DNA of 23,103 nt. Source: an uncultured Deinococcales bacterium (GTDB taxonomy: Bacteria; Deinococcota; Deinococci; Deinococcales; JAAFIG01). The notes beneath the pieces are model-generated. The model was given only the letters and a program-made list of their open reading frames with translations, ran no database searches and was not told the DNA's origin. A program made the translations under genes and the position numbers. The stretch lies in the NCBI GenBank assembly GCA_964247135.1, contig CAXTTL010000053.1, positions 1-23,103 of the forward strand. Direction: 5' to 3'. Each line of letters opens with the position of its first letter. Position 1 is the first letter of the stretch. Positions 119 through 23,062 of this stretch are shown here, piece by piece.

Positions 119-1372
119 ATGGCTTTCGGCACGAATCGAGCGCTTGTGAAGGCAGAACCCATTCAAGAATTAAAAGACATTGCCAAAAATTTACCGAGCG
201 CGGTCAGCACCAGACTCAACGCCGTCACCAGACAGCTCGAGGGTGAGCGCGGGGCGTTCAATGCCCTGTCATTCATCGGTAACAAGCTCTCAGGCGTGCG
301 TGATGTCTTTGATGCCACGGCGCTGCTCGAGGCGGTCTTAAAAGAGGCTGTGGTGCTCATGCAGGGTGACCGTGCCGCGCTCGCACTGGTCGAAAAAACG
401 GGTTTGCGCGTGGTTGCCAGCCGCTCGAGGGATTCTGACGCCGATGTCACGGTTTCGCAGACCTTCCTCGAGCGGGTCGTCAAAACCGGTCAGGCGCTGG
501 TCTCAACCAACGTTCAAGAAGACCCGAGCATGAATTCCAGCGCCAGCATTCTGGCGCTCGACATTCGTAGTGTTCTGGCAGTGCCGTTGCGCTCGAGAGA
601 CGAAGTGATTGGCGTTTTGTACGTCGATACCCTGTTCAACCATCGCATGTTTTCAGACATTGATGCCGCAGTATTGGCGACTTTCGCCGGACAAGCCAGC
701 GTTGCGGTCATTTTGGCTCGCAGCGTGCAGCAAGACCATGAACGTAACGTGGCGTTCATCAAAACCATGCTGACCACCCTGGATGCTCGAGACCCGTACA
801 CCGCAGGGCATTCCAACCGCGTCGGCGATTACACCCTCAAGCTGTCCAAGGTGCTGGATTGGAAAGCCGCCGACCAGGAACGCGCCTTGTTCACCGGTTG
901 GGTGCATGACATTGGCAAAATTGGCATCCGAGACGAGTTCTTGTTTAAAAAAGAACCCTTAAGCTTTGGCGAACGCGAGATCATCGAAGAGCATTCGGTG
1001 ATTGGCGAGCGCATTCTGAGGACCATGATGCCCGAAAATCAAGCCATTTTGAGCGCCGTCAGACACCACCACGAACGCTGGGATGGAGGCGGTTATCCCG
1101 ACAAACTCGAGCGGGATACCATTCCCATGCTTGCCCGCATGATCGCCCTCGCAGACACCTTCGACGCCATGACCACCGCCCGTCCGTACAGCACGCCCAA
1201 AACCTGGGAGCGCGGTTTTGAAATTTTGCGTCTCGAGGTTGGGAAGCAATTCGCGCCCGATTTGGTCGAACCGTTCATTCAAGCCTTAAACGACGAAAAT
1301 GTCGGCTCGAGCGTCGATGGTCAAATCATGACCTCGCCACTGGCTCAAACCCAGAATCTCGAGGTTGTGTAG
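119..1372 (+). CDS. GAF domain + HD-GYP cyclic-dinucleotide phosphodiesterase
   Basis: GAF-like segment (SQTFLERVVKTGQALVSTNVQEDP...IRSVLAVPL...VIGVLYVD) followed by intact HD-GYP motifs: TAGHSNRV, HDIGKIG, HHERWDGGGYP, ADTFDAMT. Start ATG 119 chosen; the ORF is open from TTG 83. Confidence 0.9.
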   Translation: MAFGTNRALVKAEPIQELKDIAKNLPSAVSTRLNAVTRQLEGERGAFNALSFIGNKLSGVRDVFDATALLEAVLKEAVVLMQGDRAALALVEKTGLRVVASRSRDSDADVTVSQTFLERVVKTGQALVSTNVQEDPSMNSSASILALDIRSVLAVPLRSRDEVIGVLYVDTLFNHRMFSDIDAAVLATFAGQASVAVILARSVQQDHERNVAFIKTMLTTLDARDPYTAGHSNRVGDYTLKLSKVLDWKAADQERALFTGWVHDIGKIGIRDEFLFKKEPLSFGEREIIEEHSVIGERILRTMMPENQAILSAVRHHHERWDGGGYPDKLERDTIPMLARMIALADTFDAMTTARPYSTPKTWERGFEILRLEVGKQFAPDLVEPFIQALNDENVGSSVDGQIMTSPLAQTQNLEVV

Positions 1373-1414
1373 GGTGCGCCCTGCGCACCGTTGGACATGC
1401 GTTGTTGGTGCGCA
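1369..1414 (+). repeat. GTAG-type REP hairpin with a partial inverted second copy, between convergent genes
   Basis: GTAG (overlapping the TAG stop) + GGTGCGC-cct-GCGCACC at 1373-1389. TGCGCACC (1382-1389) is also inverted by GGTGCGCA (1407-1414). Confidence 0.65.
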
Positions 1415-1419
1415 AGGCT

Positions 1420-3831
1420 TTAAGCCTCGAGTTTTTGTTTGACCAATTCTTGCACCATTTGCGGATTGCCCGCGCCTTTGGTTTGCGCCATGACCTGACC
1501 GACAAAAAACCCCAGCAAGCCCGTGCGACCAGATTTGTACGCCGCAACCTTGTCAGGATTTGCCGTCATGATCGCGTCCACAATCACCGCTAGCGCTCCA
1601 GAATCCGAAACTTGTTTCAATCCGTCACGTGCAATAATCTCGAGCGGATCAACACCTGTTTCAATGGTTTTCTCGAGCACCGTTTTGGCAATGCGGTTTG
1701 AAATCGTACCGTCCGAAATCAGCTTCACCAGTTCGCCAAGTTGAGCAGGGGAGACTCGAGGGGAATCGGTTTCTCGTAGGTGCGTGCCGAGTTCATTCAC
1801 CACCCAATTCGAGAGCGTCGAAGCATTTACGCCAGACTGGAATGATGCGTCCAAGAAGCTCGAGAGTTTTGGTTCTCGCACCAACACTCGAGCTTCAGAT
1901 TCGCCAATCTCGAGTTTGAGATATTGCTCGAGTTTTATTTGTTGCTCAGGTGTGAGTTCTGCTTTTGTAACTTCGGCGTTTGCTTGAGTTGAACTGCTCG
2001 CATGTCCGTGAGATGTCGCCATGACTGTTCTGGTTGGTGTTGCTCGAGTTGAACCACTTGCTGCGACATCAATGGTTGCACTGTTTGACCATGAATCCCG
2101 AAGCGAAATAATCCTGTTGAACACCAACTTTTCCGCGCTTGAGTCCACGGGATCACGCCAGAAATACCCGAGACGCTCGAACTGATACCGAGTCTCGAGC
2201 GGGTCATTTTCAATGCTGGGTTCGACAAAACCGTGCGAAATCTCGAGGCTGTTGGGATTCAAGAAATGCAGGAAATCCACCTCTTCACCATCGTCATCTT
2301 CCTCGAGTTCTTTGGCTTCGGCTTCGGGGTGAGGACTTTTGAACAATCGGTCATACAATCTAAACTCGGCTGGCACGGCGTATTTGGCGCTGACCCAATG
2401 AATCACGGCTTTGGCTTTTTCGGCTTCCTCGAGCAGCGTGCAGTGAAGCTCGAGAATTTCGCCAGCGTCATTTTTTACGATATCGTTGCATTCGATCACG
2501 CCAACACCACGCAAGAACACACGACCGTTCGGGGATAAACGTTTGAAACCCGCTACAGGCTCGAGCATAAAATCTTCACGCTCAATAAAAATTTCTTTTG
2601 TTAGTTTGACTGCTCGAGTTGCGGTTTCTGGGGTTACTCGAGTTCCATCTGGAAGCGGCACAAGTCCATCGGGTGACAGTTTGATCACGTCACTTGGAAA
2701 GTACGGAATCTCGAGTTCTAAATCCACCTCGACATTGGAGAGCACAATTTTTAACGGGTGCAAGACTGCCATCACCCGAGGTGCAATGAAGTTCAAATCG
2801 TCCCGAATCGCATTCTCGAGAATCGCCAAATCCACGGTGCGGTTCGTGCGGTTGATGCTGATTTGCGAGACGAATTTTTGGATGGCATCGGGTGTCACGC
2901 CGCGCCTGCATTGCGCCGCGATGGTTGGCATTCGCGGGTCGTCCCAACCAAGCACGTGCTTACCTTCGACCAGCTTTTTCAATTTGCGTTTGCTGACCAC
3001 GGTGTACTCGAGACTCCTGCGCCCGAACTCGTACTGAATTGGTGGGGCTTTTTCCCAAAGGTTGTCCATCAACCAACGGTACACGGCGTTGTTGTCAATA
3101 AACTCGAGCGAGCACAAACTGTGCGTTACGCCGTCGAGCGCATCCGTGATACTTTGAGCAAAATCGTAACTTGGGTAAATGCACCATTCGTTTCCCGTGC
3201 GGTAATGCGTGGCGTGAACGATGCGGTACAAGACTGGGTCACGAAGTTTAAAGTTTGGGTTAGCCAAATCAATCTTGGCGCGAAGCACGTGCGAACCATC
3301 AGGAAATTCTCCCAAACGCATTCTCTTGAACATCTCGAGGTTCTCGTTCACGCTGCGATCACGGTACTGGCTGGGCGTTCCAGGCGCGAAGGCTGTCCCG
3401 CGAAGCCGTGCCATCTCTTCGGCGCTCACGCTGTCCACGTATGCCAGACCACGTTCGATCAAACGAATGGCATCGGCATAAAGTTCTGGGAAGTAACTCG
3501 AGGCGTAAGAAATCTCGAGTCCCCAATCCAAACCAAGCCACGCGAGGTCTTTGGAAATAGACTCCACAAATTCGGGTTTGTCGGTGTGCGGGTTGGTGTC
3601 ATCAAACCGCAGCACAAAACGCCCGTTGTAATCTTTGGCGATACCGTAATTGAGTAAACTTGCAAACGCGTGCCCAAGGTGGGCAAAACCATTCGGGTTG
3701 GGCGGAAACCGCGTCACCACACCGTTGTAGCGTTGTTGCTCGAGGTCGCGGTCAATGATTTCCGTAATGAAATTCGGACCAATACGGCGAGAACTCGAGG
3801 TTGAAGGTTTTGAGTTGATTTCCGTGCTCAT
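1420..3831 (-). CDS. glnS: Glutamine--tRNA ligase with C-terminal YqeY (GatB_Yqey) domain
   Basis: RFPPNPNGFAHLGH (HIGH motif), RFDDTNP, HSLCSLEF, VVSKRKL (KMSKS motif), WDDPRMPT, YQFERLGYF. An S/T/A-rich linker leads to a YqeY tail (GLKQVSD...GFFVGQVM...GAGNPQMV). Start ATG 3831 has TATGCT 8 nt upstream; the ORF-track extension to 3930 crosses a REP. Confidence 0.96.
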   Translation of the reverse strand: MSTEINSKPSTSSSRRIGPNFITEIIDRDLEQQRYNGVVTRFPPNPNGFAHLGHAFASLLNYGIAKDYNGRFVLRFDDTNPHTDKPEFVESISKDLAWLGLDWGLEISYASSYFPELYADAIRLIERGLAYVDSVSAEEMARLRGTAFAPGTPSQYRDRSVNENLEMFKRMRLGEFPDGSHVLRAKIDLANPNFKLRDPVLYRIVHATHYRTGNEWCIYPSYDFAQSITDALDGVTHSLCSLEFIDNNAVYRWLMDNLWEKAPPIQYEFGRRSLEYTVVSKRKLKKLVEGKHVLGWDDPRMPTIAAQCRRGVTPDAIQKFVSQISINRTNRTVDLAILENAIRDDLNFIAPRVMAVLHPLKIVLSNVEVDLELEIPYFPSDVIKLSPDGLVPLPDGTRVTPETATRAVKLTKEIFIEREDFMLEPVAGFKRLSPNGRVFLRGVGVIECNDIVKNDAGEILELHCTLLEEAEKAKAVIHWVSAKYAVPAEFRLYDRLFKSPHPEAEAKELEEDDDGEEVDFLHFLNPNSLEISHGFVEPSIENDPLETRYQFERLGYFWRDPVDSSAEKLVFNRIISLRDSWSNSATIDVAASGSTRATPTRTVMATSHGHASSSTQANAEVTKAELTPEQQIKLEQYLKLEIGESEARVLVREPKLSSFLDASFQSGVNASTLSNWVVNELGTHLRETDSPRVSPAQLGELVKLISDGTISNRIAKTVLEKTIETGVDPLEIIARDGLKQVSDSGALAVIVDAIMTANPDKVAAYKSGRTGLLGFFVGQVMAQTKGAGNPQMVQELVKQKLEA

Positions 3832-3868
3832 CGAATTCGAGCATACCGTAAGAAGCTGCCCAGGGCAA

Positions 3869-3894
3869 AGGGCGAATACAAGGCTCGCCCCTAC
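3869..3894 (-). repeat. GTAG-type REP hairpin
   Basis: Minus strand reads GTAGGGGCGAGCCTTGTATTCGCCCT: GTAG head plus a GGGCGA/TCGCCC stem, in the glnS-jetA divergent spacer. Confidence 0.65.
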
Positions 3895-4000
3895 GGCAAG
3901 TCTTTTTTTTTGCGAGTAATCTGCTTTCATTTTCAGATCTAAATTGTGATTCGCACTGATACTCGAGATTTAGGGTATTAAGCTGTAAACTCGTACCAGC

Positions 4001-5431
4001 ATGGACTATTACAGGTTACAGCACGAATTCTTGCATTCCCCAAGCATTCGTTTGCTTCGCAGTCCACATGCGCCTTTGATTCTGAGTTTCTTGTATGCCC
4101 AGTTCAAAATTGCGCAACGTCTTGTTGTCCCCTGGGACGATCTGGTCGGGTTTCTCGAAACCGCACTCGAGGAGATCAATGCAGCCAAACCAGATGCTTT
4201 TCCAAAATCGGCGAGCATGTATTTAAAAGAATGGAGCAACGAGGAGCACCGAATTTTACGGGTGCTCAACAGGAACAACACCGATTTGGTCGAATTGACC
4301 CCAGACACCGAGCGCAGTATTGCTTGGATTGAGAGTTTGTACCAGCATCAGTTTGTCGGGACAGAATCGCGTTTTTTATCGATTTTTGGTTTGCTGCAAG
4401 AAATGATCGCCAGAAGCACCGAGGAGGTCAGTGTGCGTGTTGGGCAACTCGAGCGCGACCGTGATGCCATTCAAGCCGAGATTGATTTGATTGTTCAGCA
4501 AAACCGTGTCGAACCGTATTCGGACACGCAATTGCGCGAACGTTTTTTGCAAGCCAGCGACCTTGCGCGGGATTTGCTGCGGGATTTTGCGGCGATTGAA
4601 CAGAATTTTCGTGGTTTGGCGCGAACCTTGCAAGAACGGCAAATGCAGCCCGATTCTCGCAAAGGGGCGTTGCTCGGTTTTGTGCTGGATGCGGACAGCG
4701 AATTAAAACGTTCTGACCAGGGGAAAAGCTTTTATGCCTTCTGGGAGTTTTTGTCTTCCGAACGCAAGCGCGACGAATTGCGCACCATGCTCGAGGCGGT
4801 ATATGCCCTGCCGGCGTTACAAGACATCAGCAAGGAACAAGATTTGTTGCGGCGCATCATTCGCTATTTGGGTGAGGCTGGCGAGAAAGTGGTGCAATCC
4901 AATCAACGCCTGTCCGAACAATTGCGACGCTTATTGGATGAGCGCAGTTTGGCTGAACGGCGCAGGGTTCGTGAATTGCTGAGCGAAATAAAGCAACTGG
5001 CATTGCAAAACGACACTGAACTATTGAGCTTAGAACTGGACGGCGACCCTGAAATGAATTTCCCACTCGAGCGCGGTTTGTGGGAGGCTTCAAGCGTTCA
5101 AAAGATCACAGTCCGTCCGACGGCGGCAAAAATCGTTGATGCGACAGACCCAATTTTTCAGGAGTTGTACCAGCAATTTTGGGTCAATGAAGCCGAATTG
5201 GAAAACCACCTGGAGGTCGTGCTTGCAGAAAAGGGCAGTTGTACACTGTCCGAGGTGCTCGAGGTTTTTCCCTTGACCAAGGGCTTGCCCGAAGTCTTGG
5301 GTTATATGGCGATTGCGGGTCGTAATACGCGCCACAGTCTGGATCACAATGCCAACACGCTGTTGACGTGGCAGGTCAAAGACGGGCTGCAACATTGGCG
5401 CATTCCAGGGTTGACGTTTAGGAGATCATGA
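4001..5431 (+). CDS. jetA: Wadjet JetA (DUF3375-like kleisin subunit)
   Basis: DUF3375-like motifs (RLLRSPHAPLILSFL, FVGTESRF, SDQGKSFYAFWEFL, KGLPEVLGY). First gene of a four-gene operon with ATGA overlaps. Confidence 0.88.
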   Translation: MDYYRLQHEFLHSPSIRLLRSPHAPLILSFLYAQFKIAQRLVVPWDDLVGFLETALEEINAAKPDAFPKSASMYLKEWSNEEHRILRVLNRNNTDLVELTPDTERSIAWIESLYQHQFVGTESRFLSIFGLLQEMIARSTEEVSVRVGQLERDRDAIQAEIDLIVQQNRVEPYSDTQLRERFLQASDLARDLLRDFAAIEQNFRGLARTLQERQMQPDSRKGALLGFVLDADSELKRSDQGKSFYAFWEFLSSERKRDELRTMLEAVYALPALQDISKEQDLLRRIIRYLGEAGEKVVQSNQRLSEQLRRLLDERSLAERRRVRELLSEIKQLALQNDTELLSLELDGDPEMNFPLERGLWEASSVQKITVRPTAAKIVDATDPIFQELYQQFWVNEAELENHLEVVLAEKGSCTLSEVLEVFPLTKGLPEVLGYMAIAGRNTRHSLDHNANTLLTWQVKDGLQHWRIPGLTFRRS

Positions 5432-6024
5432 TGAAACCAGAACCCCATGCGGGCGTGATGTTGCGTTTGTTGCAGGGCGCGATTGAATTTGATGACCGCA
5501 ACACTTGGAATGCCTTAATCCTGCATGAAAAAATGGTGCGTCAAGATTTTGCACGAATCGGACTCGAGCTTGTTTTTGTTCAGTCCGATGGTTACGCTTT
5601 TTTACGCCAACCAGAACTCGAGACCGAAGACGGCGAAGCCATCGCCTTGCCTCGGCTGATCAGCCGTCATCGTTTGAGCCGTGATGTCACCTTGTTGTGC
5701 CTGCTGCTTCGAGAGCGCCTCGATCAATTTGAGAACAGCACCCCAGATTCGGATCGTTTGCTGTTGTCCCAAGAGGATTTACGCGATTTGCAGCGTCCTT
5801 TTGCCACTGAGCTTGGTGACGAACGCACGCTCTTCAATCGGTTTGATAAAACGATTCAGGTCGTGGTGAAGCTGGGTTTTTTGCGTCCAATCAGCAACAC
5901 CGAACGTTTTGAGGTGCGTCAAATCATCAAAGCCCGAATCAGCGCCGAGCAATTGCTCGAGTTAAAAAAGTCTTTGCTCGACGCTGCCACGCCAGACAGC
6001 CCAGGTTTTGAGGATGCGCCATGA
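5428..6024 (+). CDS. jetB: Wadjet JetB (DUF4194-like kite subunit)
   Basis: About 198 aa with IGLELV...DGYAFLRQ, LPRLISRHRLS..VTLLCLLLRE, LGFLR, FEVRQIIKA. Lies between jetA and an SMC-like ATPase. Confidence 0.88.
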   Translation: MMKPEPHAGVMLRLLQGAIEFDDRNTWNALILHEKMVRQDFARIGLELVFVQSDGYAFLRQPELETEDGEAIALPRLISRHRLSRDVTLLCLLLRERLDQFENSTPDSDRLLLSQEDLRDLQRPFATELGDERTLFNRFDKTIQVVVKLGFLRPISNTERFEVRQIIKARISAEQLLELKKSLLDAATPDSPGFEDAP

Positions 6025-9000
6025 ACAACGGTTTTCGACTCGAGAAATTTGAGGTCTACAACTGGGGAACCTTCAAAGATCAAGTCTGGTCACTCGAGGT
6101 TGGCAGCGGCACGGCGTTGCTGGTCGGAGCGAACGGCTCGGGGAAATCGACTTTGGTGGACGCTTTTTTAACGCTGCTCGTGCCGCCGCAAAAACGAAAT
6201 TACAATCAAGCTTCCGGCGAGAAATCAAAACGTGGTGAACGCAACGAAACCTCGTATGTGCGGGGTGCGTTTGAACGCAAATCCTCGGACGGTGAGACAA
6301 GCTCGGAGATTCGATACTTGCGCGATAAGAACAGTTACAGCGTTTTGCTGGCGCGGTTTGTTGAGGCGAAAACCAAGCAAATCGTGACCCTCGCCAGCGT
6401 TTTTTACTGGGCGAACAATCCCCGCCCAGAGAAATTTTTTGTCGTGGCAAGCAAAGCCTTAAGCATTTCTGAGGATTTTGCGGTGCAAGGTGAAGTCTCG
6501 AGCCTGAAAAAACGACTTCGCAATCAAGGCGCAGAGGTGTACGACGAGTTTAGCAAGTACAGCCGCGACATCATCAAGGGTTTTGGTTTGCGTTCAGAAA
6601 AAGCCCTGGATTTGTTTAACCAAACCGTTTCGATCAAATCGATTGAAAGTTTAAACGAATTTGTCCGCACGCACATGCTCGAGAAAACCGATATCTTGGA
6701 AAAAATCAATGAACTGCGTGGGCAATACCAGAATCTAACCAAAGCCCATGAAGCCATCGAACGCGCCGAAAAGCAAATCGATTTGCTCAACCCCTTATTG
6801 CGTGAAGCCGATGAGCACACGGCAAAACGAGAGCAGATCAATCAGACCGAACTGTTGCTCGAGGTCGTGCCGCTCTATTTTGCCAAGGCGCAACTGGATT
6901 TGCGCCAAACGGCAATCAGGGACTGCCAAACCGAGCAAACAGCCTTAAAACAGCAACTCGAGCAAACAAAGCAACAACTGGAATCCGACCGCAACCAAAA
7001 ACTCGAGTTGCAGATCGCGCTGCAAAACGACGATGTTGGACGGCGATTGACCGAATTGGAACGCGATATTGCCCAAAAACAAAAAGCGATTGCCGAAAAA
7101 CAAAAAAAGGCAGATCAATATGAAAGTTTATTGAACCGTTTGGGTTTTGCGCCCAGCGACAATCAAATCGATTTTTTAGGGCAACGTCAACACGCGATAG
7201 AACGTCTTGAAGCGCTCGAGCCAGACATTGAAAGGATCAAACGAGAAATCATCAAGGGCGAGATTGAAAAAGAAAAGTTAAACGAAAAGTTGAATGAGCT
7301 GCGACATGAAATTGAGTCTTTAAAATCGCGTCAGAGCAACATTCCAATCACGAACTTGCAAATTCGTGAACAAATCGCGGTTGGTCTTGGCATTCAAGAA
7401 ACCCATCTGCCGTTTGCTGGCGAGTTGATTCGGGTTCGACCCGATGCAAGCCCCTGGGAAGCGGCGATTGAACGCCTGCTCAACCCGCTCGGCAGGCAGT
7501 TGCTGGTCTCAGAGGCGCTTTACCATGATGTCAGCGATTTTGTGAACCGCACCAAATTGCGCGGACATTTGGTGTACCTGCGCACCTTACCGCAGCGTTC
7601 AAAGCTCGGTGCTCTCGAGTTTGAAGCCAATCTGTTGATTGCCAAACTCGAGGTAAAGCCAGACCACCCGATGCAGGCTTGGCTCAAAACCGAATTGATG
7701 ACACGCTGGGATTACGTCTGTTGTGATTCGATAGAGCAATTCCGACGTGAACGGCGTGCTTTGACCATCAGCGGACAAATCAAGCACAACGAAAACCGTC
7801 ACGAAAAAGACGACAGCCGTGTGCTCGGAGACCGCAGCCGTTACGTGCTGGGTTGGAGCAACCTCGAGAAACTTAAGGTGCTGGAGGCAGCCTTTTTGGA
7901 TCTCACCAGCGACCTGAGCACCACCCAAAGCGAGATCAAAAACCTCGAACTTGAGGGCAAAAACCTCGAGCAGCGCAAATACACCTTGCAGCAATTTATC
8001 GGTTTTGAGAACTTTGATCAGATCGATTGGCACAGCGAGGTTAAAGTTCTCGATGATTTGGAATTGCAAAAGCAAAAACTCGAACAGGACAGCAATCATT
8101 TGCAAACGCTAAAACAACAACTCGAGGTTTGCCAAACCAGAATCTTGAACCTTGAAACGGTCCAACAGAAACTCAACCAAGATTTGGGAAGGCTCGAGAC
8201 AAACTTAAACGATCATCAACACAAAAGCCGAGCGCATGAAACTGTTTTAAAGGAGCATCCTTTTGAAATCTGGCAAGCTTTTATCCCAACAATCGAAACC
8301 GAGTTGCGGCAAAAAACGCTGACCCTCGAGACGGCAGGCGACCTGCAATACAGCTTGAATGATTCGCTCAACAAACGCGCCAACGTTTACCGTGGTCAAG
8401 CTTCAAAACTCGAAACCGAAATCAGTCTTAAAATGTCCAAGTTCCGCGATTCGTACCCAGAGGACAGCAGCGAATTTGACTCGTCGCTCGAGTCCATTCC
8501 CGAATACCGCAGGTTGTTTGAACGTTTGGAACGCGACGACCTGCCAAGACACCGTGAAGAATTTAAGACTTTTCTGAACGACAAAATGACCATCGCCATC
8601 AAAAGTTTTCAACGCCACCTCGAGACTCAGGAAGAGGATATTCTGTCCAGCATTGCCGCCCTGAATAGCTCGTTGCAGCATATCGATTACACGCCAGCCA
8701 CCTATATTAAACTCGAGGCAAAACGCAACACCGACGTTGAAATCCAGGAATTTAAGAATGCCTTGCGTGCCTGCACCCCAGATGGTGGATTGCAAAACCA
8801 AGAATTGCGCGAGAACAGTTTTGCCCGAATCCGAGAGTTGATCGAACGTTTTAGCAGCTTTGAAAATTGGACAAACAAAGTCACAGACGTGCGTCAATGG
8901 CGGGTTTTTGCCGCCGAAGAGCGTTACCGCGAAACGGGGCAGCAAAAAAATTATTACGAAGGCTCGAGCGGCAAATCGGGTGGACAACAAGCCAAATTGG

Positions 9001-9326
9001 CGTACACCATTCTGGCTTCGGCAATCGCGTATCAGTATCAACTCGAGCAAGGTGCCTCGAGCCATAAAACTTTTAGGTTCGTGGTGGTTGACGAGGCGTT
9101 CAGTAAACTAGACGAATCCAACGCCAGTTATGCACTCGAATTGTTTAAGCAATTGGAATTGCAATTGCTGGTCGTGACCCCCAAAGACAAAACCCATGTG
9201 GTCGAATCGTTTATTCAAAGTTGCCATTTTGTCACCAACAACGCCGAAGAGAACGATTCTCGAGTTTACAACCTGACTCAAAGCGAATTTGAGACTCAAA
9301 AGCAGCGCTGGGCAAACGAATCATGA
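6021..9326 (+). CDS. jetC: Wadjet JetC SMC-like ATPase
   Basis: N-terminal YNWGTF, Walker A GANGSGKST, long coiled coils around a hinge (LPFAGELI...WEAAIERLL), signature KSGGQ, Walker B FVVVDEAF, LLVVTP. Confidence 0.93.
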   Translation: MNNGFRLEKFEVYNWGTFKDQVWSLEVGSGTALLVGANGSGKSTLVDAFLTLLVPPQKRNYNQASGEKSKRGERNETSYVRGAFERKSSDGETSSEIRYLRDKNSYSVLLARFVEAKTKQIVTLASVFYWANNPRPEKFFVVASKALSISEDFAVQGEVSSLKKRLRNQGAEVYDEFSKYSRDIIKGFGLRSEKALDLFNQTVSIKSIESLNEFVRTHMLEKTDILEKINELRGQYQNLTKAHEAIERAEKQIDLLNPLLREADEHTAKREQINQTELLLEVVPLYFAKAQLDLRQTAIRDCQTEQTALKQQLEQTKQQLESDRNQKLELQIALQNDDVGRRLTELERDIAQKQKAIAEKQKKADQYESLLNRLGFAPSDNQIDFLGQRQHAIERLEALEPDIERIKREIIKGEIEKEKLNEKLNELRHEIESLKSRQSNIPITNLQIREQIAVGLGIQETHLPFAGELIRVRPDASPWEAAIERLLNPLGRQLLVSEALYHDVSDFVNRTKLRGHLVYLRTLPQRSKLGALEFEANLLIAKLEVKPDHPMQAWLKTELMTRWDYVCCDSIEQFRRERRALTISGQIKHNENRHEKDDSRVLGDRSRYVLGWSNLEKLKVLEAAFLDLTSDLSTTQSEIKNLELEGKNLEQRKYTLQQFIGFENFDQIDWHSEVKVLDDLELQKQKLEQDSNHLQTLKQQLEVCQTRILNLETVQQKLNQDLGRLETNLNDHQHKSRAHETVLKEHPFEIWQAFIPTIETELRQKTLTLETAGDLQYSLNDSLNKRANVYRGQASKLETEISLKMSKFRDSYPEDSSEFDSSLESIPEYRRLFERLERDDLPRHREEFKTFLNDKMTIAIKSFQRHLETQEEDILSSIAALNSSLQHIDYTPATYIKLEAKRNTDVEIQEFKNALRACTPDGGLQNQELRENSFARIRELIERFSSFENWTNKVTDVRQWRVFAAEERYRETGQQKNYYEGSSGKSGGQQAKLAYTILASAIAYQYQLEQGASSHKTFRFVVVDEAFSKLDESNASYALELFKQLELQLLVVTPKDKTHVVESFIQSCHFVTNNAEENDSRVYNLTQSEFETQKQRWANES

Positions 9327-10456
9327 CGCCCAAAGAATTGACGGCACGGCTTTTAAAGCTCTACCCCAACGTGCTCAGGGCGTGGTTGCAAGGTCAGCCA
9401 TTTGCTCCGATTGGGTTAAACATTCCCAAGCCAAGCTTTGAGTATCTCGAGTTGCGAGCACATCAAGAAACCTGGCTCGAGACGCCAAAGTTTTGTCGCA
9501 TCGAACGCGAGATCATGCAAACCCGATCACATGGCACGCAAACGATTGCCCGAAGAATTTGGCTTGATGCCCAGGATGATTTTTTGGGATTGATTGGAAA
9601 AAAACAAGAATTTCAGAACGCCCAAACCGACGCCCAACTGATTCGCAACCAATTGCCTATCTTGCTCAGTTACCTCGAGCAACAACCAAAAGTCTTGATC
9701 GAACAACATGGCATCTGGCTCGAGCTGCTGCGGGTCTGCCAGTATTTTATGGCTCATCCGCGCCCAAACCGTTACGCCAGAGAATTGCCGATAGCGGTGC
9801 ATACCAAATTTATTGACCAAAACCAAGCCGTGTTGCAACGTCTGCTCGAGGTGGTTTTACCGCCAGAAACCATTGACCGGAAAGCAGAGACTTTTGAATC
9901 GCGCTTTGGCTTGCGTTTCACAGAACCTCTAATTCGATTCAGAATTTTAGATGGTGAATTGCAAACCGTACTGGGTTTCCCAATTTCGGATGTCAGCACG
10001 CCACTGTCCGAATTCGTGACGCTCGGTTGGCAGAATCTAGCGTGCTTGATCGTGGAAAACAAGCAAACGTTTTTAACCCTGCCAACACTATCAAAAACCA
10101 TTGCCATTTGGGGACATGGCAATGCAGTACATCTGCTGCGGCACGCCGCGTGGTTGTCAAATTGTCAATTGCGTTATTGGGGCGACTTGGATGCGCACGG
10201 GTTCTGGATTTTATCGGGTTTGCGAAAGCATTTTCCAAACACCCAAAGCGTCATGATGGATCGCGCGACCCTCGAAGCATTTCGAGAATTTATTGTTCCA
10301 AGCGCTCACCTGAGCACCACCCAACTCGGGTACCTCAACGACCAAGAATGGAGCGTGTTTACTGAGCTTCAAACCCAAAATTTGCGTTTGGAGCAAGAAC
10401 ACCTCGAGCATTCTTATGTCTTAAAGCAATTGCAAAAAATTGATCATCTGGGATGA
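9323..10456 (+). CDS. jetD: Wadjet JetD Toprim-fold nuclease (DUF3322 + DUF2220-like)
   Basis: RYARELPI.VHTKFI, IVENKQTF (Toprim Glu), IWGHGN, YWGDLDAHG (DxD), LRLEQE. Last gene of the operon. Confidence 0.9.
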   Translation: MTPKELTARLLKLYPNVLRAWLQGQPFAPIGLNIPKPSFEYLELRAHQETWLETPKFCRIEREIMQTRSHGTQTIARRIWLDAQDDFLGLIGKKQEFQNAQTDAQLIRNQLPILLSYLEQQPKVLIEQHGIWLELLRVCQYFMAHPRPNRYARELPIAVHTKFIDQNQAVLQRLLEVVLPPETIDRKAETFESRFGLRFTEPLIRFRILDGELQTVLGFPISDVSTPLSEFVTLGWQNLACLIVENKQTFLTLPTLSKTIAIWGHGNAVHLLRHAAWLSNCQLRYWGDLDAHGFWILSGLRKHFPNTQSVMMDRATLEAFREFIVPSAHLSTTQLGYLNDQEWSVFTELQTQNLRLEQEHLEHSYVLKQLQKIDHLG

Positions 10457-13680: not shown

Positions 13681-13748
13681 GTCGCACGGATTAACTCCTT
13701 CAGTGGAGGCAACCCCGCACCTTTAACGGTACGGGGTTGTATTTTTTT
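13681..13748 (+). ncRNA. Candidate ~68-nt small RNA with an anti-Shine-Dalgarno motif
   Basis: Promoter directly upstream, no ORF, AACTCCTT with a small CTCC/GGAG stem, followed immediately by an intrinsic terminator. Confidence 0.45.
13709..13748 (+). terminator. Intrinsic terminator
   Basis: GCAACCCCG-C-ACC-tttaac-GGT-A-CGGGGTTGT followed by ATTTTTTT. Confidence 0.8.
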
Positions 13749-14075
13749 GCCGACTCGAGCTTTCACCCAGATTCAACACTCGAGTCCGAAATCTGTGTCT
13801 CAAGTCAAGCTCGAGATTGGGTTTTGGTCTGCCCAGAATTTCTCGAGTTGGGTTTTATTGAATTTCTGACGATAAAAGAGCGTCGCGTCAAAACTTGGCT
13901 CGTGCGACGCCCATGCGACGCCTCTTTTCGCAAACTGATTCTCAGGAATCAATTCAAGAAAGGAGTTGCGAAACCAAACAACAAAGTCCGACTCGCGGCT
14001 GCTCAAGTGCGTCTCAGCGTTTTGTCTCGCAAGCCAGAAATACCATTTCGGCTTGAATTAATGGAGGATTTACCC

Positions 14076-15239
14076 ATGAAAAAATGGATTGCTCAATCGG
14101 TCATCATCGCGTTAATGGCAGGTTCTCTGGCGGCGTGCGGCGGCGGTGGCTCAACGCCAGGCGGGGCGTCTGCAAGTTTGGGTGGCATTCTGTTTGACGA
14201 CCTCAACAAAAACAACCTGCGCGATGCGGGCGAACCAGGTCTGAAAGACTGGACGGTTTACGTGGACGCCAACGGCAACTCGAGCCTCGACGCCGGCGAG
14301 AAGACTGCCGTGACGGGTGCAACGGGCGCCTACAGCTTTGGCGACGTGAAAATTGGCGCGAACAAAATAGGGGTGCAAATGCGTTTGGGTTACAGCGCCG
14401 TCCATGTTGTGCCGCTCTCCTCGAGCTTGATCGATCCCAAAATCATCAACGGTACGACTGTGCCTGGCAAAGATAAATTCCCATTTCAGGTTGCTTTGGT
14501 TCAAAAAGCCGATGGCGCTCAATTTTGTGGTGCGTCCTTGGTTGCGCCGCGCTGGGTCTTGACGGCGGCGCACTGCTTTTACACCGACAGCAAGCAAACA
14601 ACTTTTGCCGCCGCCGTTCAAGTCCGAATTGGGGTCACCGACCTGAGCACCCAAGACGGCGAGACCATCGATGTCAGCGAAATCATCAACCACCCACAGT
14701 ACCTGTTGCCCGCAGGCAGCGGCACAAACAACGACATCGCCCTGCTGAAACTGAGCGCCCCAGCCACCCAGGGCAGCCTGATCGTTCCCGCTCGAGGCGG
14801 CGACACGAACCTCAATGCCGCAGGCACAGCCGTGCGCGTGATCGGTTGGGGCAGAACCGAAACGGGCACGACCAATGTCTTGCGCGAGGTTCCTCAACAA
14901 CTTTCCCAGGATGCCCTGTGCCAAAGCACCTGGAATGCCACGCCGCAGATGCTCTGCGCCCAAACCCCAGCGGGCGACACCACCGTGCGCGAATCCTGCC
15001 AGGGTGACAGCGGCGGACCGCTGTTCACCGACAGCGCCACCCCAAGGCAAGTCGGCGTGGTGTCGTTCGGTACGACAAGCTGCACCGACATCACAAAACC
15101 AGGCGTGTACGCTCGAGTGACCGCCTTCGATGATTGGTTGGGTGCAACCACCGGACGCACCGCCAGCGATTTGGGCATCTCGTTTGACCTGAGCGCCAAC
15201 ACCTCGAGTGTCGGGATTGGTGTGCAGCAAAGCAACTGA
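14076..15239 (+). CDS. Lipoprotein with SdrD-B-like domain and S1 (trypsin-like) serine protease
   Basis: SD GGAGG, signal peptide with lipobox LAA-C, SdrD-B-like FDDLNKNNLRDAGEPGL...VYVDANGN..LDAGE, activation site K|IING, catalytic TAAHC / NDIALL / GDSGGP, PGVYARV. Confidence 0.9.
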   Translation: MKKWIAQSVIIALMAGSLAACGGGGSTPGGASASLGGILFDDLNKNNLRDAGEPGLKDWTVYVDANGNSSLDAGEKTAVTGATGAYSFGDVKIGANKIGVQMRLGYSAVHVVPLSSSLIDPKIINGTTVPGKDKFPFQVALVQKADGAQFCGASLVAPRWVLTAAHCFYTDSKQTTFAAAVQVRIGVTDLSTQDGETIDVSEIINHPQYLLPAGSGTNNDIALLKLSAPATQGSLIVPARGGDTNLNAAGTAVRVIGWGRTETGTTNVLREVPQQLSQDALCQSTWNATPQMLCAQTPAGDTTVRESCQGDSGGPLFTDSATPRQVGVVSFGTTSCTDITKPGVYARVTAFDDWLGATTGRTASDLGISFDLSANTSSVGIGVQQSN

Positions 15240-15282
15240 AGTTCAAAAGCTTTAGGCTCGAGTTTTAAAGTTTGTGCTTTCA

Positions 15283-15322
15283 CCTCTCATCCCCGACCCT
15301 TCTCTCCCAGGAGAGAAGGGAG
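15283..15322 (+). repeat. REP-like element, copy 1 (CCTCTCATCCCC..CCCTTCTCTC-loop-GAGAGAAGGG)
   Basis: 10-bp stem 15297-15306/15311-15320; a near-identical copy lies at 22874-22952. Confidence 0.75.
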
Positions 15323-15338
15323 TTTTGGTTTTAGCTCG

Positions 15339-15426
15339 AGAAGCGACCATGCCCGCTAGGTGCGTTTTATGGTCAAGAAGCGACCATGCCCGCTAGGTGC
15401 GTTTTATGGTCAAGAAGCGACCATGC
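15339..15426 (+). repeat. 37-bp perfect tandem repeat, about 2.4 copies
   Basis: AGAAGCGACCATGCCCGCTAGGTGCGTTTTATGGTCA at 15339 and 15376, plus a partial copy at 15413-15426. Confidence 0.9.
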
Positions 15427-15502
15427 GCGTTGCAGTGATTTGTCTGATCTCGAGCACATGTTCACCTCGAGCCGACCAAAAATCCAAGCTTTGAGAACAT
15501 CC

Positions 15503-19893: not shown

Positions 19894-19972
19894 GTTGACC
19901 TTTAAACCGCCGAACAAAAAATCCTATCCCAATTTCGTCAGCCGCGCCGCTTCAACGCCACAGGAGGCATTT

Positions 19973-20599: not shown

Positions 20600-20683
20600 T
20601 AACGGTTCAACCGGCAATCAGCAATATGTCTTACAGTGTCTCGAGGCAAGACAAAGCTCGAGACACCATTTTTGGGGGAAATC

Positions 20684-21595: not shown

Positions 21596-21646
21596 CCGAA
21601 CGTCTCGAGTGCTCAGTTTTGACGCACTCGAGCTGCCGCACGGTTT

Positions 21647-22819
21647 ATGATGATGGGCGTGGAATTGTTCATCATCGGTTTTGCGTTTCTTTTTGGTTCA
21701 CTGATCGGTTCGTTTTCCAACGTGCTGATCTACCGCATCCCCCGCAAGGAAAGCGTCGCCTTCCCGCCCAGCCATTGCCCCAACTGCAACCATCAACTCG
21801 GGGTGCTCGACCTGTTCCCGATTTTTTCCTGGCTCGCCTTGCGTGGCAAATGCCGTTACTGCGGACATCCGATCTCCAGCCGTTATCCGATCATCGAACT
21901 GATTTCGGGCATCGGTTACGCCCTGATCGCCTGGAAGGTCTACGGCAATTACAGCCTCGGCTTGCAATACGGGTTTGAGCGCAATTACATTCTCGAGGCG
22001 CTCGGCATGATGTTCTTGTACACCTGCCTGCTGGTCGGTTCGGCAATTGACCTCGAGACGAAACTGCTGCCCGACGAATTTACCTTGCTGCCACTGCTGG
22101 TGGGTTTGGCGCTCTCGGTCTGGATCGGCGGCGTCCCAGGGTTTTACAAGGCGCTCGAGGGAGCCATCTTTGGTGCTGGCATTCTGGCGTTTGTTGCGGG
22201 TTTTTTCGCCTGGGTGCTGCGCCGTTTTAGAGAACCAAAATTCCCATCGTTTCCGGTTGGTTATTTGAACATTCACCTGGCGTTTCTGGTCGGGGCTTGG
22301 CTCGGACCTATTTATGGCGTTGCGGCTGGCGTGCTTTTGACGGTTCTCAATTTGATTTTTAAACGCGTGATTCCAATGCCCGACTTTTTGACCCTCGGCG
22401 GCGGCATCATCAGCATTTTTGTCTCGAGCAGCGTCTTACACAACCATAGCCTCGCCTCGAGCGCTTACGGTGCCTTGCAAGCCGCCGGCGGCATGGCATT
22501 GCTGGCAGGCTTGTACTGGTGGTTCACCCCCGAATTTGAGGACGATGAAAGCGAAGACGGCGATCCCGTCGCCTTTGGGTTTGGCGATGTCAAACTTTGG
22601 GGCGCGGTCGGTGTGGTGCTGTTCTGGCAGGGCGCGATCTTCGGATTTTTGATTGGCGTGTTTGCTGGCGCGATTTTTGGTATCATCCAAAAAGCCCGCA
22701 CCGGAGATTCGCAACTGCCATTTGGACCTGGTTTGGCGCTGGGCGCAATGACTGCGTATTTTACAAACTCGAGTCCATTCTTGAGCTATCTGCAAAACAT
22801 TGGGATTTTGGGAAAATAA
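21647..22819 (+). CDS. pilD: Type IV prepilin peptidase/N-methyltransferase (A24A)
   Basis: GSFSNVLIYRIP, two CxxC motifs (SHCPNC, GKCRYC), catalytic Asp motifs IDLETKLLPD and GFGDVKL, LPFGPGL. Start may be ATG 21647/21650/21653 or GTG 21659 (7 nt after TATGAT). Confidence 0.92.
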   Translation: MMMGVELFIIGFAFLFGSLIGSFSNVLIYRIPRKESVAFPPSHCPNCNHQLGVLDLFPIFSWLALRGKCRYCGHPISSRYPIIELISGIGYALIAWKVYGNYSLGLQYGFERNYILEALGMMFLYTCLLVGSAIDLETKLLPDEFTLLPLLVGLALSVWIGGVPGFYKALEGAIFGAGILAFVAGFFAWVLRRFREPKFPSFPVGYLNIHLAFLVGAWLGPIYGVAAGVLLTVLNLIFKRVIPMPDFLTLGGGIISIFVSSSVLHNHSLASSAYGALQAAGGMALLAGLYWWFTPEFEDDESEDGDPVAFGFGDVKLWGAVGVVLFWQGAIFGFLIGVFAGAIFGIIQKARTGDSQLPFGPGLALGAMTAYFTNSSPFLSYLQNIGILGK

Positions 22820-22873
22820 GGACAGGGCGCAATTTCCTTTTCTCGCACGAAAATCAGCCATTGCTCGAGCCAT

Positions 22874-22952
22874 CCTCTCATCCCCAACCCTTCTTGCCCC
22901 TTACGGCAGCACCTTCGGGCTTGGGGCGCTTCTCTCCTCGGAGAGAAGGGAG
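22874..22952 (+). repeat. REP-like element, copy 2, interrupted by a 34-bp insert
   Basis: CCTCTCATCCCCAACCCTTCT-[22895-22928]-CTTCTCTCCTCGGAGAGAAGGGAG; the flanks match 15283-15322. Confidence 0.75.
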
Positions 22953-23062
22953 CTTAAGTCTTTACATGTCTGGCTCGAGAATTTTGCTGACAGACTTTTT
23001 GTGTGAAAATCTGTTTTTCTCAAGAAATCGAACCTCAAGGTGCGGGAATCATACCAAATTGC

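Follow-up and report, generated by a model that had tools for sequence, protein, structure and literature searches.

The stretch of DNA that was analysed (the window; 23,103 nt from an uncultured Deinococcales bacterium) carries the following features:

1420..3930, minus strand: glutaminyl-tRNA synthetase (GlnRS) with a C-terminal GatB/YqeY domain, containing many CTCGAG; this gene was used to locate relatives.
4001..10456, plus strand: Wadjet jetABCD operon (DUF3375, DUF4194/MksE, SMC-like, JetD).
13737..15239, plus strand: trypsin-family protease ORF (Pfam Trypsin).
13754..13847, no strand: four clustered CTCGAG (13754, 13779, 13810, 13842), probably situated in an intergenic leader that belongs to the protease gene.
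21647..22819, plus strand: prepilin peptidase PilD (type IV pilus/competence machinery).
236..22979, no strand: 152 exact copies of CTCGAG spread at ~6.6 per kb; called ORFs contain 142 of them.

A direct count of the hexamer (first copy at 236-241, last at 22974-22979) agreed with the sequence-only reading that had preceded this analysis, which gave about 150 copies over the range 236-22979. The Bernoulli expectation at the 52.6% GC of the window is 6.2 copies (24.5x excess), and 100 dinucleotide-preserving shuffles yielded 4.67 copies on average (sd 1.92, maximum 10). That reading had also stated that none of the five copies in the protease gene encodes Leu-Glu, and the frames bear this out: the copies at 14279, 14420, 14791, 15112 and 15203 read x-Ser-Ser in three cases and Ala-Arg-x in two. 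The four-copy cluster was recovered as described and is most likely intergenic: it is situated downstream of a terminator-like hairpin and T-run (at about 13714-13748), despite the mechanically called, TTG-started ORF that spans it and whose translation there looks non-protein-like. The Wadjet operon is an indel with respect to the syntenic locus of the same-genus genome G005 (window positions 3851 and 10472 adjoin in G005:C25), though it holds 36 CTCGAG (5.6 per kb).

The source genome (G000, 5.09 Mb) contains 33,925 CTCGAG, that is 6.7 per kb, about one per 150 bases or 4.0% of all bases. The genome-wide excess is 24.7x and persists under Markov models of order 1 (35x) and order 2 (14x). The hexamer is found in all 297 contigs larger than 5 kb (2.6-10.5 per kb), with a spacing that is near Poisson (variance/mean 0.91 at 500 bp, up to 2.3 at 10 kb) and has no marked evenness, and the 19 genomes of the window's family are all rich in it (4.3-6.8 per kb); the enrichment is thus not confined to this contig. 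The source assembly is fragmented (386 contigs, 84% complete), which could point to an artefact, whether from assembly, binning, adapters or synthetic DNA, but the identical signature is present in the 18 further family genomes, one of them closed and single-contig, and in other public MAG records, and the sites keep their frame in conserved genes and match at orthologous positions between assemblies. An artefact was rejected on these grounds, its probability being practically nil.

The excess concerns the exact hexamer. The remaining 15 NTCGAN words in the source genome occur at 0.09-1.8x of expectation, so that the equal enrichment of all such words that the sequence-only reading had considered does not occur. 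One-mismatch variants are not enriched, there is no depletion of the transition neighbours (CTTGAG 1.16x, TTCGAG 1.76x), and GAGCTC, which has the CTC and GAG codons in reverse order, has 0 copies. The flanks carry at most 0.07 bits per position, which identifies a bare 6-bp palindrome and no longer element or repeat; the most frequent 14-mer context accounts for 9 of the 4,743 non-coding sites. In non-coding DNA the flanks have a weak dyad-symmetric preference (A at -3/T at +3 in 43%, G at -1/C at +1 in 35%). The density is 6.5 per kb in coding and 7.5 per kb in non-coding DNA, with the reservation that genes were called crudely, by greedily taking the longest ORFs (100 aa or more), and short genes are thus counted as 'non-coding'. 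Intergenic classes range from 7.1 to 8.7 per kb, the density is level along gene length, and 96% of the ORFs contain the motif.

These data bear directly on the possibility that the motif simply follows from codon usage, from dipeptide composition or from selection on translation, for instance from Leu-Glu being favoured as CTC GAG. The Leu-Glu frame indeed provides 61% of the coding sites (CTC-GAG 17,462; nCT-CGA-Gnn 4,590; nnC-TCG-AGn 6,649), and in the high-GC genus g9, which is not enriched, the counts are wholly accounted for by codon usage (coding ratio 0.78). In the source genome, however, synonymous shuffling in 5 replicates, which preserves every protein, hence every dipeptide, and the per-gene codon counts, brings the 28,701 coding copies down to 4,036-4,108. 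This 7x excess extends to all frames (frame 0, 5.6x; frame 1, 13x; frame 2, 11.5x), and shuffling of the codon order leaves only 1,662-1,714 copies. Leu-Glu dipeptides are in surplus (22,739 vs 9,486 expected, 2.4x) without a Glu-Leu counterpart (9,634, 1.0x). The shuffles, the density in non-coding DNA and the absence of GAGCTC led us to reject the codon-usage explanation as exceedingly improbable, in keeping with the earlier assertions that all three frames are used and that codon bias cannot explain the motif. The accumulation of CTCGAG has altered proteins, forcing amino-acid changes.

The comparison across relatives, where genomes are mostly 57-94% complete and statements on presence and absence are bounded accordingly, shows that CTCGAG is a family-wide trait that is graded across the order, which is new relative to the earlier reading. 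Outside the window's family, a weaker codon-corrected excess was found in other Deinococcales, namely in G019 (1.8x), G024 (3.2x) and the MAG loci L004 (3.0x) and L006 (3.3x); there is no excess over codon expectation in G016 (0.8x), and G014 has 0 copies vs 12 expected. The family f3 avoids the site (26-1,193 copies per genome). The Leu-Glu excess follows the gradient of the CTCGAG excess across lineages.

CTCGAG is preferentially kept within the genus. In 236 kb of alignment between G000 and G005 (85% identity), 1,327 sites (of 1,656 and 1,577) are common to both, a Jaccard index of 0.70 that compares with a pooled value of 0.30 for control words; none of the 841 control words reaches 0.70, and CTCGAG lies 2.3-fold above composition-matched controls. 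By frame the index ranges from 0.58 to 0.74, and non-coding DNA gives 0.67. At conserved residues, 92% of CTC codons within the motif are retained vs 58% of those elsewhere; for GAG the figures are 93% and 72%. The flanks of conserved sites diverge normally (15%), the differences are evenly spread over the half-site (114, 115 and 102 at its three positions), and no mutational hot spot was found at a single cytosine between G000 and G005. One-mismatch variants are poorly conserved (pooled Jaccard 0.22 vs 0.30 for control words). We infer that the exact hexamer is read in an all-or-none fashion by some lineage-conserved DNA-handling protein. Between genera, 14-17% of the G000 sites are common vs 11-12% for control words, while two stretches of G011 used in this comparison have 4.8 CTCGAG per kb and G000 has 6.7 per kb. 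Sites are therefore continually re-created, the density being steady at 4.3-6.8 per kb throughout the family while positions turn over, and both this and the conservation within the genus support the earlier proposal of an active process by which the motif arises or is preserved. The turnover is illustrated by the presence and absence of GlnRS sites in four same-genus genomes (e.g. 2784, 3514). Of 79 site positions, 8 are occupied in just one of these four genomes, some of them differing from the other three at 4-5 bases; losses (20 positions occupied in three of four) exceed these clear gains, so that a present-day equilibrium of gain and loss cannot be taken as established.

The motif is best explained as a lineage-wide, DNA-level signature palindrome of the same class as HIP1 (GCGATCGC), uptake signal sequences and Chi. 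Its description as a HIP1-like palindrome outside the cyanobacteria is upheld by its resistance to shuffling, its density in non-coding DNA and its conservation in all frames. Like HIP1 and the alternate cyanobacterial HIPs, it is short, GC-rich and far above Markov and codon expectation, occurs in all frames and between genes, is lineage-wide with sublineage variation, is accompanied by heavy avoidance of other restriction-type palindromes, and is more conserved between relatives than control words in the same test as in section 8 of PMC5861425. Unlike HIP1 it is a hexamer and no octamer, it belongs to another phylum (Deinococcota) and it clearly reshapes dipeptide composition; its 6.7 copies per kb (4% of bases) compare with the more than one HIP1 motif per gene that PMC5861425 gives for some genomes, and its one-mismatch variants are not conserved, whereas those of HIP1 are according to section 25 of that paper. 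HIP1 furthermore has the methyltransferases DmtA and DmtC described in PMC13756078, whereas no cognate conserved methyltransferase was found for CTCGAG. Our search of the literature recovered no earlier report of CTCGAG hyper-abundance. After the cyanobacteria, this uncultured relative of Deinococcus and Thermus provides a second, independent instance of 'highly iterated palindromes', a phenomenon still without explanation; here evolution has actively kept the palindrome, and proteins were reshaped.

The sequence-only reading had offered three mechanisms. In methylation-directed repair, a CTCGAG- or TCGA-specific methyltransferase would mark sites and a mismatch endonuclease acting in the methylation context would repair near or damaged sites to the full motif, the ratchet that Elhai proposed for HIP1 (PMC4390886; PMC5861425, section 25). 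Exact, all-or-none recognition of a hexamer is typical of restriction-modification enzymes; G000 has at least 12 methyltransferase-like genes, which together with the extremely strong avoidance of most other palindromes indicates intense restriction-modification pressure; and a repair bias would also account for the synonymous and non-coding conservation. Against this, the five small methyltransferases of G000 all lack family-wide orthologues (the Dam-like one does best with 5 of 12 genomes, the rest reach 2-4), G008 with its 21,883 CTCGAG gave no match for a C5-methyltransferase, and the closed genome G011 lacks a PF01555 methyltransferase. The ~500-aa N6 methyltransferases of five genomes are mostly dissimilar (mutual identity 28-41%, one pair 68%) and have no counterpart in G000; four of the six adjoin an ORF of 307-365 aa, three such neighbours being alike, and we read them as putative type I hsdM-hsdS units. 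A family-wide methyltransferase was thus not found among the G000 enzymes compared with 12 genomes, the N6 enzymes of five genomes, or G011, nor was Vsr found in G000. The undepleted transition neighbours and the lack of a mutational hot spot at any single cytosine also speak against this mechanism, which we consider unlikely.

The hexamer is identical to the target of XhoI/PaeR7I, and its recognition is apparently equally strict and all-or-none. Restriction targets are normally avoided; this one is 25x enriched in G000, the avoidance expected of such a target being seen in f3. A search for an XhoI-family nuclease gave no match, the control search likewise matching nothing anywhere.

In the second mechanism an abundant protein of the nucleoid or of chromosome organisation would bind the sites as an array, reading CTCGAG as a dimer, and ordinary selection on compaction or architecture would keep them; Xu et al. 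reportedly proposed such a function for HIP1. The dyad-symmetric flank preference, the uniform spread over ORFs and the conservation akin to that of HIP1 in PMC5861425 are consistent with this. The poor conservation of one-mismatch variants is the opposite of what PMC5861425 describes for HIP1 and of what is expected of a degenerate binder, there is no 10-11 bp phasing, and any one of the 34,000 sites would presumably add too little to fitness to explain how strongly each is retained. We regard this explanation, too, as improbable.

The third mechanism, biased uptake, is still plausible. PilD is confirmed by its domains (A24_N_bact, Peptidase_A24), which provides context only, and ComEC is present in 20 of 21 relatives; this machinery is order-wide and also occurs in lineages without an excess. 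We put forward, tentatively and at somewhat short of an even chance, that CTCGAG is an exact-match tag of self-DNA in homologous-recombination traffic, uptake- or Chi-type, that spreads via conversion-like drive. Such drive would act like selection at each site, plausibly through biased gene conversion or through preferential import of alleles that bear the motif; that each of 34,000 sites benefits the organism is less probable. The site conservation itself is equally expected from purifying selection alone or from a repair bias that restores the motif. The tag could function in uptake or processing during natural transformation (ComEC, PilD). It could also be a palindromic Chi-like signal that stops a predicted AddAB-type helicase-nuclease, in which case alleles without the site would be degraded and re-copied from site-bearing copies, leading to conversion; this is a possible fourth candidate. 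An AddA-like/AddB-like gene pair is found at G000:C24:24923-30555, and an AddB-like orthologue was recovered from 16 of the 18 other family genomes and from 125 of 129 in f2, f4 and f5, but from 0 of 53 in f3, the one family that avoids the motif. The absence of AddB from f3 is a single phylogenetic event. ComEC and AddAB-like genes also occur in non-enriched lineages (genus g9; Thermus-like genomes) and are therefore necessary conditions at best. No reader protein was identified in the analysis.

The uptake sequences of Pasteurellaceae (USS) and Neisseriaceae (DUS) are genome-wide exact motifs of 9-12 nt, non-palindromic and present about once per kb, which are conserved in relatives, carry a proteome cost, are lacking in recent acquisitions and are thought to spread by molecular drive. 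CTCGAG resembles them as an exact-match motif in genes and intergenic DNA, with a proteome cost, conservation among relatives, absence from recent acquisitions and competence genes present; it is shorter, palindromic and denser, and ComEC is shared with relatives without enrichment. We know of no sequence-specific uptake receptor or uptake bias in the Deinococcales. With the Chi sites of RecBCD/AddAB it shares an exact motif (5-8 nt for Chi), over-representation in the core genome, absence from foreign DNA and the predicted enzyme. To our knowledge all Chi sites are asymmetric, G-rich, strand-skewed and co-oriented with replication, whereas CTCGAG is palindromic and far denser. A 6-bp palindrome thus fits neither class.

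CTCGAG is missing from recently acquired low-GC DNA: the motif-free stretches (1.3-2.6 kb, 26-40% GC) contain accessory or defence genes. These islands, the extremely strong avoidance of other palindromes and the search of the 19 family genomes, which found no HK97-type capsid gene, could also reflect a self-mark for defence, in which an effector or nuclease spares DNA dense in CTCGAG (modified or not) and attacks DNA without it, selection keeping the density high. No candidate system was identified, the islands are tolerated, the problem of marginal benefit per site recurs, and the idea overlaps with the Chi-type tag; we consider it very improbable. A phage record (G201, 72.9 kb), for which a host was sought and not found, contains 186 CTCGAG and no GAGCTC, with a coding excess of 2.5x after shuffling and 17 non-coding copies vs 1.8 expected. 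Its enrichment could be mimicry of a self-mark. Phages without RecBCD inhibitors accumulate Chi, so that the enrichment in this phage would favour the Chi-type form of the self-DNA tag proposed above over the uptake form.

The hexamer CTCGAG is a hyper-iterated palindrome at the level of the DNA itself, exact in its match and family-wide in its occurrence. The window holds precisely 152 copies (the first at 236-241, the last at 22974-22979), where the sequence-only reading had estimated about 150; expected were 6.2 copies by a Bernoulli model at 52.6% GC and 4.7 ± 1.9 (maximum 10) in dinucleotide-preserving shuffles. The complete assembly to which the window belongs as contig C53 (G000; 5.09 Mb, 386 contigs, 84% complete) contains 33,925 copies, or 6.66 per kb, which amounts to 24.7 times the Bernoulli expectation and to 35 and 14 times the expectation of an order-1 and an order-2 Markov model, respectively. 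The enrichment is not limited to one contig, as the density lies between 2.6 and 10.5 per kb on each of the 297 contigs above 5 kb, and the chance that the excess is an artefact is negligible. In total, 4.0% of all bases lie inside a site, and 96.4% of the ORFs of at least 100 aa carry at least one. Of the sampled words, 6% were recovered from two sequencing runs only, as contigs.

The other 15 words of the type NTCGAN occur at 0.09-1.8x, so that an equal enrichment of this whole group does not apply, and the 18 one-mismatch neighbours of CTCGAG range from 0.08x to 1.76x; the runner-up among the palindromic hexamers is TTTAAA (3.7x). The positions flanking the sites contain at most 0.07 bits of information. 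In non-coding DNA the flanks have a weak dyad-symmetric bias (A at -3/T at +3 in 43%, G at -1/C at +1 in 35%), in which the left and right preferences show no statistical coupling at offsets 2 and 3 and a mild antagonism at offset 1 (0.83x), and the most frequent 14-mer context is found 9 times among 4,743 non-coding sites. Because the flanks are nearly uninformative and the 14-mer contexts rarely recur, CTCGAG should be regarded as a bare hexamer and not as a repeat element. A dispersed element of the REP or MITE type was ruled out, there being no conserved sequence outside the core.

The gaps between sites have a mean of 148 bp (CV 0.96) and the counts per bin are near-Poisson (variance/mean ratio 0.91 for bins of 500 bp, 2.3 for bins of 10 kb). 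Short gaps are rare (below 10 bp 0.11x and at 10-20 bp 0.56x the expectation), and a gap of exactly 6 bp does not occur in G000, because such spacing creates GAGCTC, which is missing from this genome. No helical phasing (10-11 bp) was seen in G000, and a binding-site array for a nucleoid protein strikes us as an improbable explanation of the sites.

Other palindromes are shunned very strongly in G000: GAGCTC is found 0 times in 5.09 Mb (1,371 expected), GGGCCC once, CGGCCG three and AGGCCT four times; 28 of the 64 palindromic hexamers remain below 0.1x, and GGCC and CTAG stand at 0.016x and 0.07x. GAGCTC is nearly missing from most of the family (f1) too, and in the closed genome G011, of another genus of the family (GC 0.59-0.60), the avoidance of GGCC is relaxed to about 0.4x. 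The commonest hexamers of G000 after those overlapping CTCGAG are A-/T-tract words such as GGTTTT, AAAACC, CAAAAA and GGTTTG.

Genes in G000 were called crudely, as greedy longest ORFs with a minimum of 100 aa, which gave 4,557 and covered 86% of the genome. By this division the density is 7.5 per kb in non-coding and 6.5 per kb in coding DNA, which bears out for the whole genome the earlier observation of dense intergenic sites; it is 8.7, 8.2 and 7.1 per kb in convergent, tandem and divergent spacers, respectively, and flat along genes. As had been stated for the window, all three frames are used: 17,462 coding sites are read as CTC-GAG (Leu-Glu), 4,590 as nCT-CGA-Gnn (mostly Ala-Arg-x) and 6,649 as nnC-TCG-AGn (x-Ser-Ser). 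A synonymous shuffle within each gene, which changes neither the protein nor the codon counts of the gene, reduced the 28,701 coding sites to 4,036-4,108, leaving a 7-fold excess, and a codon-order shuffle left 1,662-1,714. Codon bias fails against this 7-fold excess and against the 7.5 sites per kb in non-coding DNA, and can practically be dismissed, in line with the sequence-only reading. CTCGAG has even reshaped the proteome of G000: Leu-Glu dipeptides number 22,739 where 9,486 were expected (2.4x), 77% of them encoded by CTCGAG, and Glu-Leu dipeptides number 9,634 (1.0x). The tRNA and tmRNA genes contain 11 sites in 5.5 kb, 3.3-fold below the 36.6 expected at genome density; a 16S rRNA gene was not found in the assembly.

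We applied the conservation test, as outlined in Xu et al. 2018 (PMC5861425), to G000 and a relative of the same genus (G005), using 236 kb of alignment with 85% identity. The aligned positions included 1,656 sites in G000 and 1,577 in G005, of which 1,327 were common to both (Jaccard 0.70); for control hexamers of four G/C and two A/T the pooled value was 0.30, and none of the 841 words reached 0.70. The index was 0.74, 0.58 and 0.71 in the three frames and 0.67 in non-coding DNA (137 shared of 172 and 170), with controls at 0.29-0.30 by frame and in non-coding DNA. Where the amino acid is conserved, CTC is kept in 92% of cases inside a site versus 58% outside, and GAG in 93% versus 72%; the flanks of conserved sites diverge by 15%, the normal level. 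The one-mismatch neighbours are less stable than the controls (pooled Jaccard 0.22 versus 0.30). Single differences are spread evenly over the three half-site positions (114, 115 and 102) and consist for 80% of transitions, and no m5C-type mutational hot spot was found within the word in the comparison of these two genomes. Of the non-identical pairs, 22% (129/579) differ in at least three of the six bases, versus 11% in controls.

Over 8.2 kb of the window region, four equidistant genomes of the same genus have 79 site positions between them, of which 35 are occupied in all four, 20 in three, 16 in two and 8 in one; of the control words, 10% are found in all four. Some of the single-genome sites are 4-5 bases off the other three genomes (e.g. 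window 2784, 20452 and 21106). Between genera, in 163 orthologue pairs of G000 and the closed G011 (59% amino-acid identity), 14-17% of the G000 sites are also sites in G011, versus 11-12% for controls, and the excess conservation of the CTC and GAG codons is gone; the density in G011 is nevertheless 4.8 per kb. Stretches of 1.3-2.6 kb without a site do exist in G000. They are mostly of 26-40% GC and carry genes of the accessory or defence type (a reverse transcriptase-protease fusion, AAA_21 and AAA_16 ATPases, an O-antigen ligase), and 4 of the 10 genes examined in them lack a Pfam match. One gene in such a stretch looks like a defence-associated reverse transcriptase:

G000, contig C4, 51606-53234: reverse transcriptase fused to a trypsin-like protease, 542 aa, in a CTCGAG-free island of 35% GC

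A segment with sites that is nonetheless an indel with respect to the syntenic locus of G005 lies within the window:

Window 4001-10456: complete Wadjet operon jetABCD, with 36 CTCGAG (5.6 per kb)

Its near-normal density points to exchange between family members or to a long stay in the genome. Taken together, these comparisons show that the retention of exact CTCGAG exceeds that of neutral sequence about threefold, that the word is continually re-created and builds up with residence time, and that it is the density that is held and not the positions. An ongoing process, as had been proposed from the window, thus retains and re-creates the word (Jaccard 0.70 versus 0.30, density held under turnover of positions) and overrides synonymous and even amino-acid choice. 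A conserved protein probably reads the exact hexamer. As the fitness value per site among 34,000 must be almost nil, a drive that acts per site, by biased conversion or biased import, seems more plausible than classical selection.

The distribution was surveyed across 201 sampled Deinococcales genomes. Close relatives, public MAGs of the order, were identified by the following gene, an architecture that is known from Deinococcus:

Window 1420-3930, minus strand: glutaminyl-tRNA synthetase fused to a C-terminal GatB/YqeY domain

In these relatives CTCGAG stands at 5.7-7.5 per kb, and none has more than a single GAGCTC. The density is 4.3-6.8 per kb throughout the 19 genomes of family f1 (five genera), the 53 genomes of family f3 have 26-1,193 copies per genome, which is avoidance, and the remaining families do not exceed 3.4 per kb. 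For codon correction, 80 kb from each of four genomes, about 350 kb of G005 and two MAG loci were sampled. The f3 genome G014 has no site where 12 are expected from codon usage, and the corrected ratio is 0.78 in G016 (genus g9), 1.8 in G019 and 3.2 (z about 19) in G024, both from other lineages of the order, 3.0 and 3.3 in the MAG loci L004 and L006, and 7.0 in G005. Non-coding sites are likewise in excess (observed/expected 26/3.1 in G019, 16/2.3 in G024, 332/10.3 in G005), and the Leu-Glu excess follows the same ranking (0.94, 1.15, 1.49, 1.67, 2.34, 2.40). Since both measures are graded, the trait is to be seen as order-wide, with f1 at its extreme. We infer that family f3 is Deinococcus-like and genus g9 Thermus-like. 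The gradient (avoided in f3, neutral in g9, 2-3x in several lineages and, corrected for codons, 7x in f1) permits a phylogenetic correlation with candidate genes, and opens the way to experiments in relatives with essentially complete genomes, possibly cultured ones.

The genes that could act on the word were searched. A self-mark in defence appears a very unlikely role for the sites. An XhoI-family endonuclease (PF04555) had no match in G000, nor in any of 14 control genomes. G000 encodes about 12 methyltransferase-like genes, for none of which Pfam or NCBIfam gives a recognition specificity. Five small ones were compared with 20 relatives, in genomes that are 74-94% complete, and none was family-wide across 12 members of f1; the best-spread, a Dam-like enzyme, occurs in 5 of the 12. 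A search for C5-methyltransferases in genome G008 gave no match, a PF01555 enzyme is absent from the closed G011, and an inventory of five of the more complete f1 genomes yielded no common orthologue group. The N6 enzymes of about 500 aa in these five are mutually divergent and have no counterpart in G000; we read them as type I HsdM units, and the methyltransferase on contig C169 of G000 as a type I hsdM adjoining hsdS. As no methyltransferase orthologue group spans the family genomes searched, a cognate orphan methyltransferase in the manner of HIP1, the highly iterated palindrome of cyanobacteria, is not supported, though with incomplete assemblies this is no firm exclusion. A methylation-directed repair ratchet could in principle create and keep CTCGAG, and is rendered doubtful by this same lack of an orthologue group, by the lack of a detectable Vsr in G000 (84% complete) and by the lack of an m5C-type hot spot among the site differences.

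A search for ComEC succeeded in 20 of 21 relatives, G000 among them, and the gene for PilD lies within the window; both are also present in Deinococcales lineages without CTCGAG excess, and because this machinery is order-wide, its presence does not discriminate. A helicase-nuclease of the AddAB type is encoded side by side:

G000, contig C24, 24923-30555: AddA-like (UvrD helicase and PD-(D/E)XK nuclease, 953 aa) and AddB-like (935 aa) gene pair

AddB-like orthologues occur in 16 of the 18 other f1 genomes and in 52/53, 21/23 and 52/53 genomes of the families f2, f4 and f5 (125/129 together), versus 0 of the 53 genomes searched in the CTCGAG-avoiding family f3. This distribution is a necessary condition for a reading of the Chi type; it is a single phylogenetic contrast and not specific. 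The two genes of G000 are themselves very dense in sites (30 and 27, about 10 per kb).

Our preferred reading, held tentatively, is that CTCGAG is a self-DNA tag in recombination traffic, with the weight about evenly divided between a tag for uptake and transformation and a palindromic, Chi-like signal for AddAB. Part of the probability falls to some mechanism other than those named here. A fuller version, to which we assign a rather low probability, is that of an orientation-free Chi-like self-tag that is read by the AddAB-type enzyme and spread by runaway biased gene conversion. Members of the Deinococcales are polyploid. Alleles without CTCGAG would then be resected and re-copied from site-bearing copies of the genome, the word would spread through biased gene conversion, and the drive would have run away until 4% of the genome was occupied and the proteome rewritten; a weaker form of the tag would exist in other families of the order with nearly complete genomes, possibly cultured. 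If true, this would be a sequence dynamic of a new kind, selfish or self-marking, and CTCGAG would give the HIP1 puzzle, now 30 years old, a second and independent point of attack.

To our knowledge, hyper-iterated palindromes were until now a peculiarity of cyanobacteria. What they do has been argued over for three decades, in terms of methylation-linked repair, chromosome structure and, latest, transformation, and a long-range periodic distribution (10-90 kb) is a feature of the class. CTCGAG resembles them in being hyper-abundant beyond compositional, Markov and codon expectation, in occurring in all reading frames as well as in non-coding DNA, and in the conservation of its sites above control words (Jaccard 0.70 versus 0.30). 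It differs in that the family genomes searched have no cognate methyltransferase in common and that its single-mismatch variants are not conserved (0.22 versus 0.30 for controls), and from HIP1 in particular in length, density and phylum. According to Elhai 2015, a cognate orphan methyltransferase for the motif or its core is found wherever a motif of the class is abundant; more recent work on HIP1 (PMC13756078; 10.1101/2024.09.10.611283) indicates a move toward the transformation reading. The proposal of a HIP1-like system outside the cyanobacteria holds with respect to abundance, frame independence and conservation, and CTCGAG is an independent hyper-iterated palindrome in another phylum, more extreme than the cyanobacterial cases: one site per 150 bp, 4% of the bases, and Leu-Glu 2.4-fold in excess. 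In the literature no report of CTCGAG hyper-abundance was found for any prokaryote, non-open papers and supplementary tables (e.g. of methylome surveys) being outside the scope of the search.

With uptake sequences, by which motif-bearing DNA is preferentially taken up via a specific receptor, CTCGAG shares the encoded import machinery (ComEC, PilD) and the dynamics; USS and DUS are however asymmetric and about 9-12 nt long, and CTCGAG is a 6-bp palindrome. Chi attenuates the nuclease and stimulates RecA loading, and is enriched in phages. The likeness to Chi lies in the AddAB-type helicase-nuclease of G000 and, again, in the dynamics, and the difference in that Chi is strand-asymmetric and co-oriented with replication, whereas CTCGAG reads the same on either strand and so can have no strand skew.

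A scan of viral contigs with double octamers gave at least 120 stretches, of which 80 loci were examined. Among the matches listed, the densest viral loci were mostly of high-GC phages in which GAGCTC is common too, which indicates codon effects. The phage record G201 (loci L257 and L258; 72.9 kb) has 186 CTCGAG and zero GAGCTC, with a coding excess of 2.5x and 17 non-coding sites versus 1.8 expected; it is the one genuine phage record that the scan yielded, and its CTCGAG signature is intermediate. Its genes include those for tape-measure, DNA polymerase, primase-helicase and SbcCD-like proteins. From the 40 kb of it that were examined, 21 palindromic hexamers are missing. A search for its host with 20 kb of DNA against 363 Deinococcales genomes gave chance-level matches only. 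In 19 f1 genomes, the closed one among them, no gene for a major capsid protein of the HK97 type passed the cut-off, and prophages of this type appear to be rare or unassembled in the family.

A six-letter DNA word can override codon choice, and even protein sequence, throughout a bacterial family. On the practical side, XhoI would cut DNA of the f1 type into fragments of some 150 bp, the k-mer signature can serve as an almost unique binning marker for these organisms and possibly their phages, and composition-based gene finders and detectors of horizontal transfer will be biased by the word. The window also contains a short element that resembles a REP or MITE:

Window 15270-15430, 3' of the protease gene: short dispersed repeat, an inverted repeat followed by about 2.5 tandem 37-bp units

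Dozens of matches to it, of 40-100 bp and 85-100% identity, are scattered over many contigs of the genomes G001, G003, G005 and G009.
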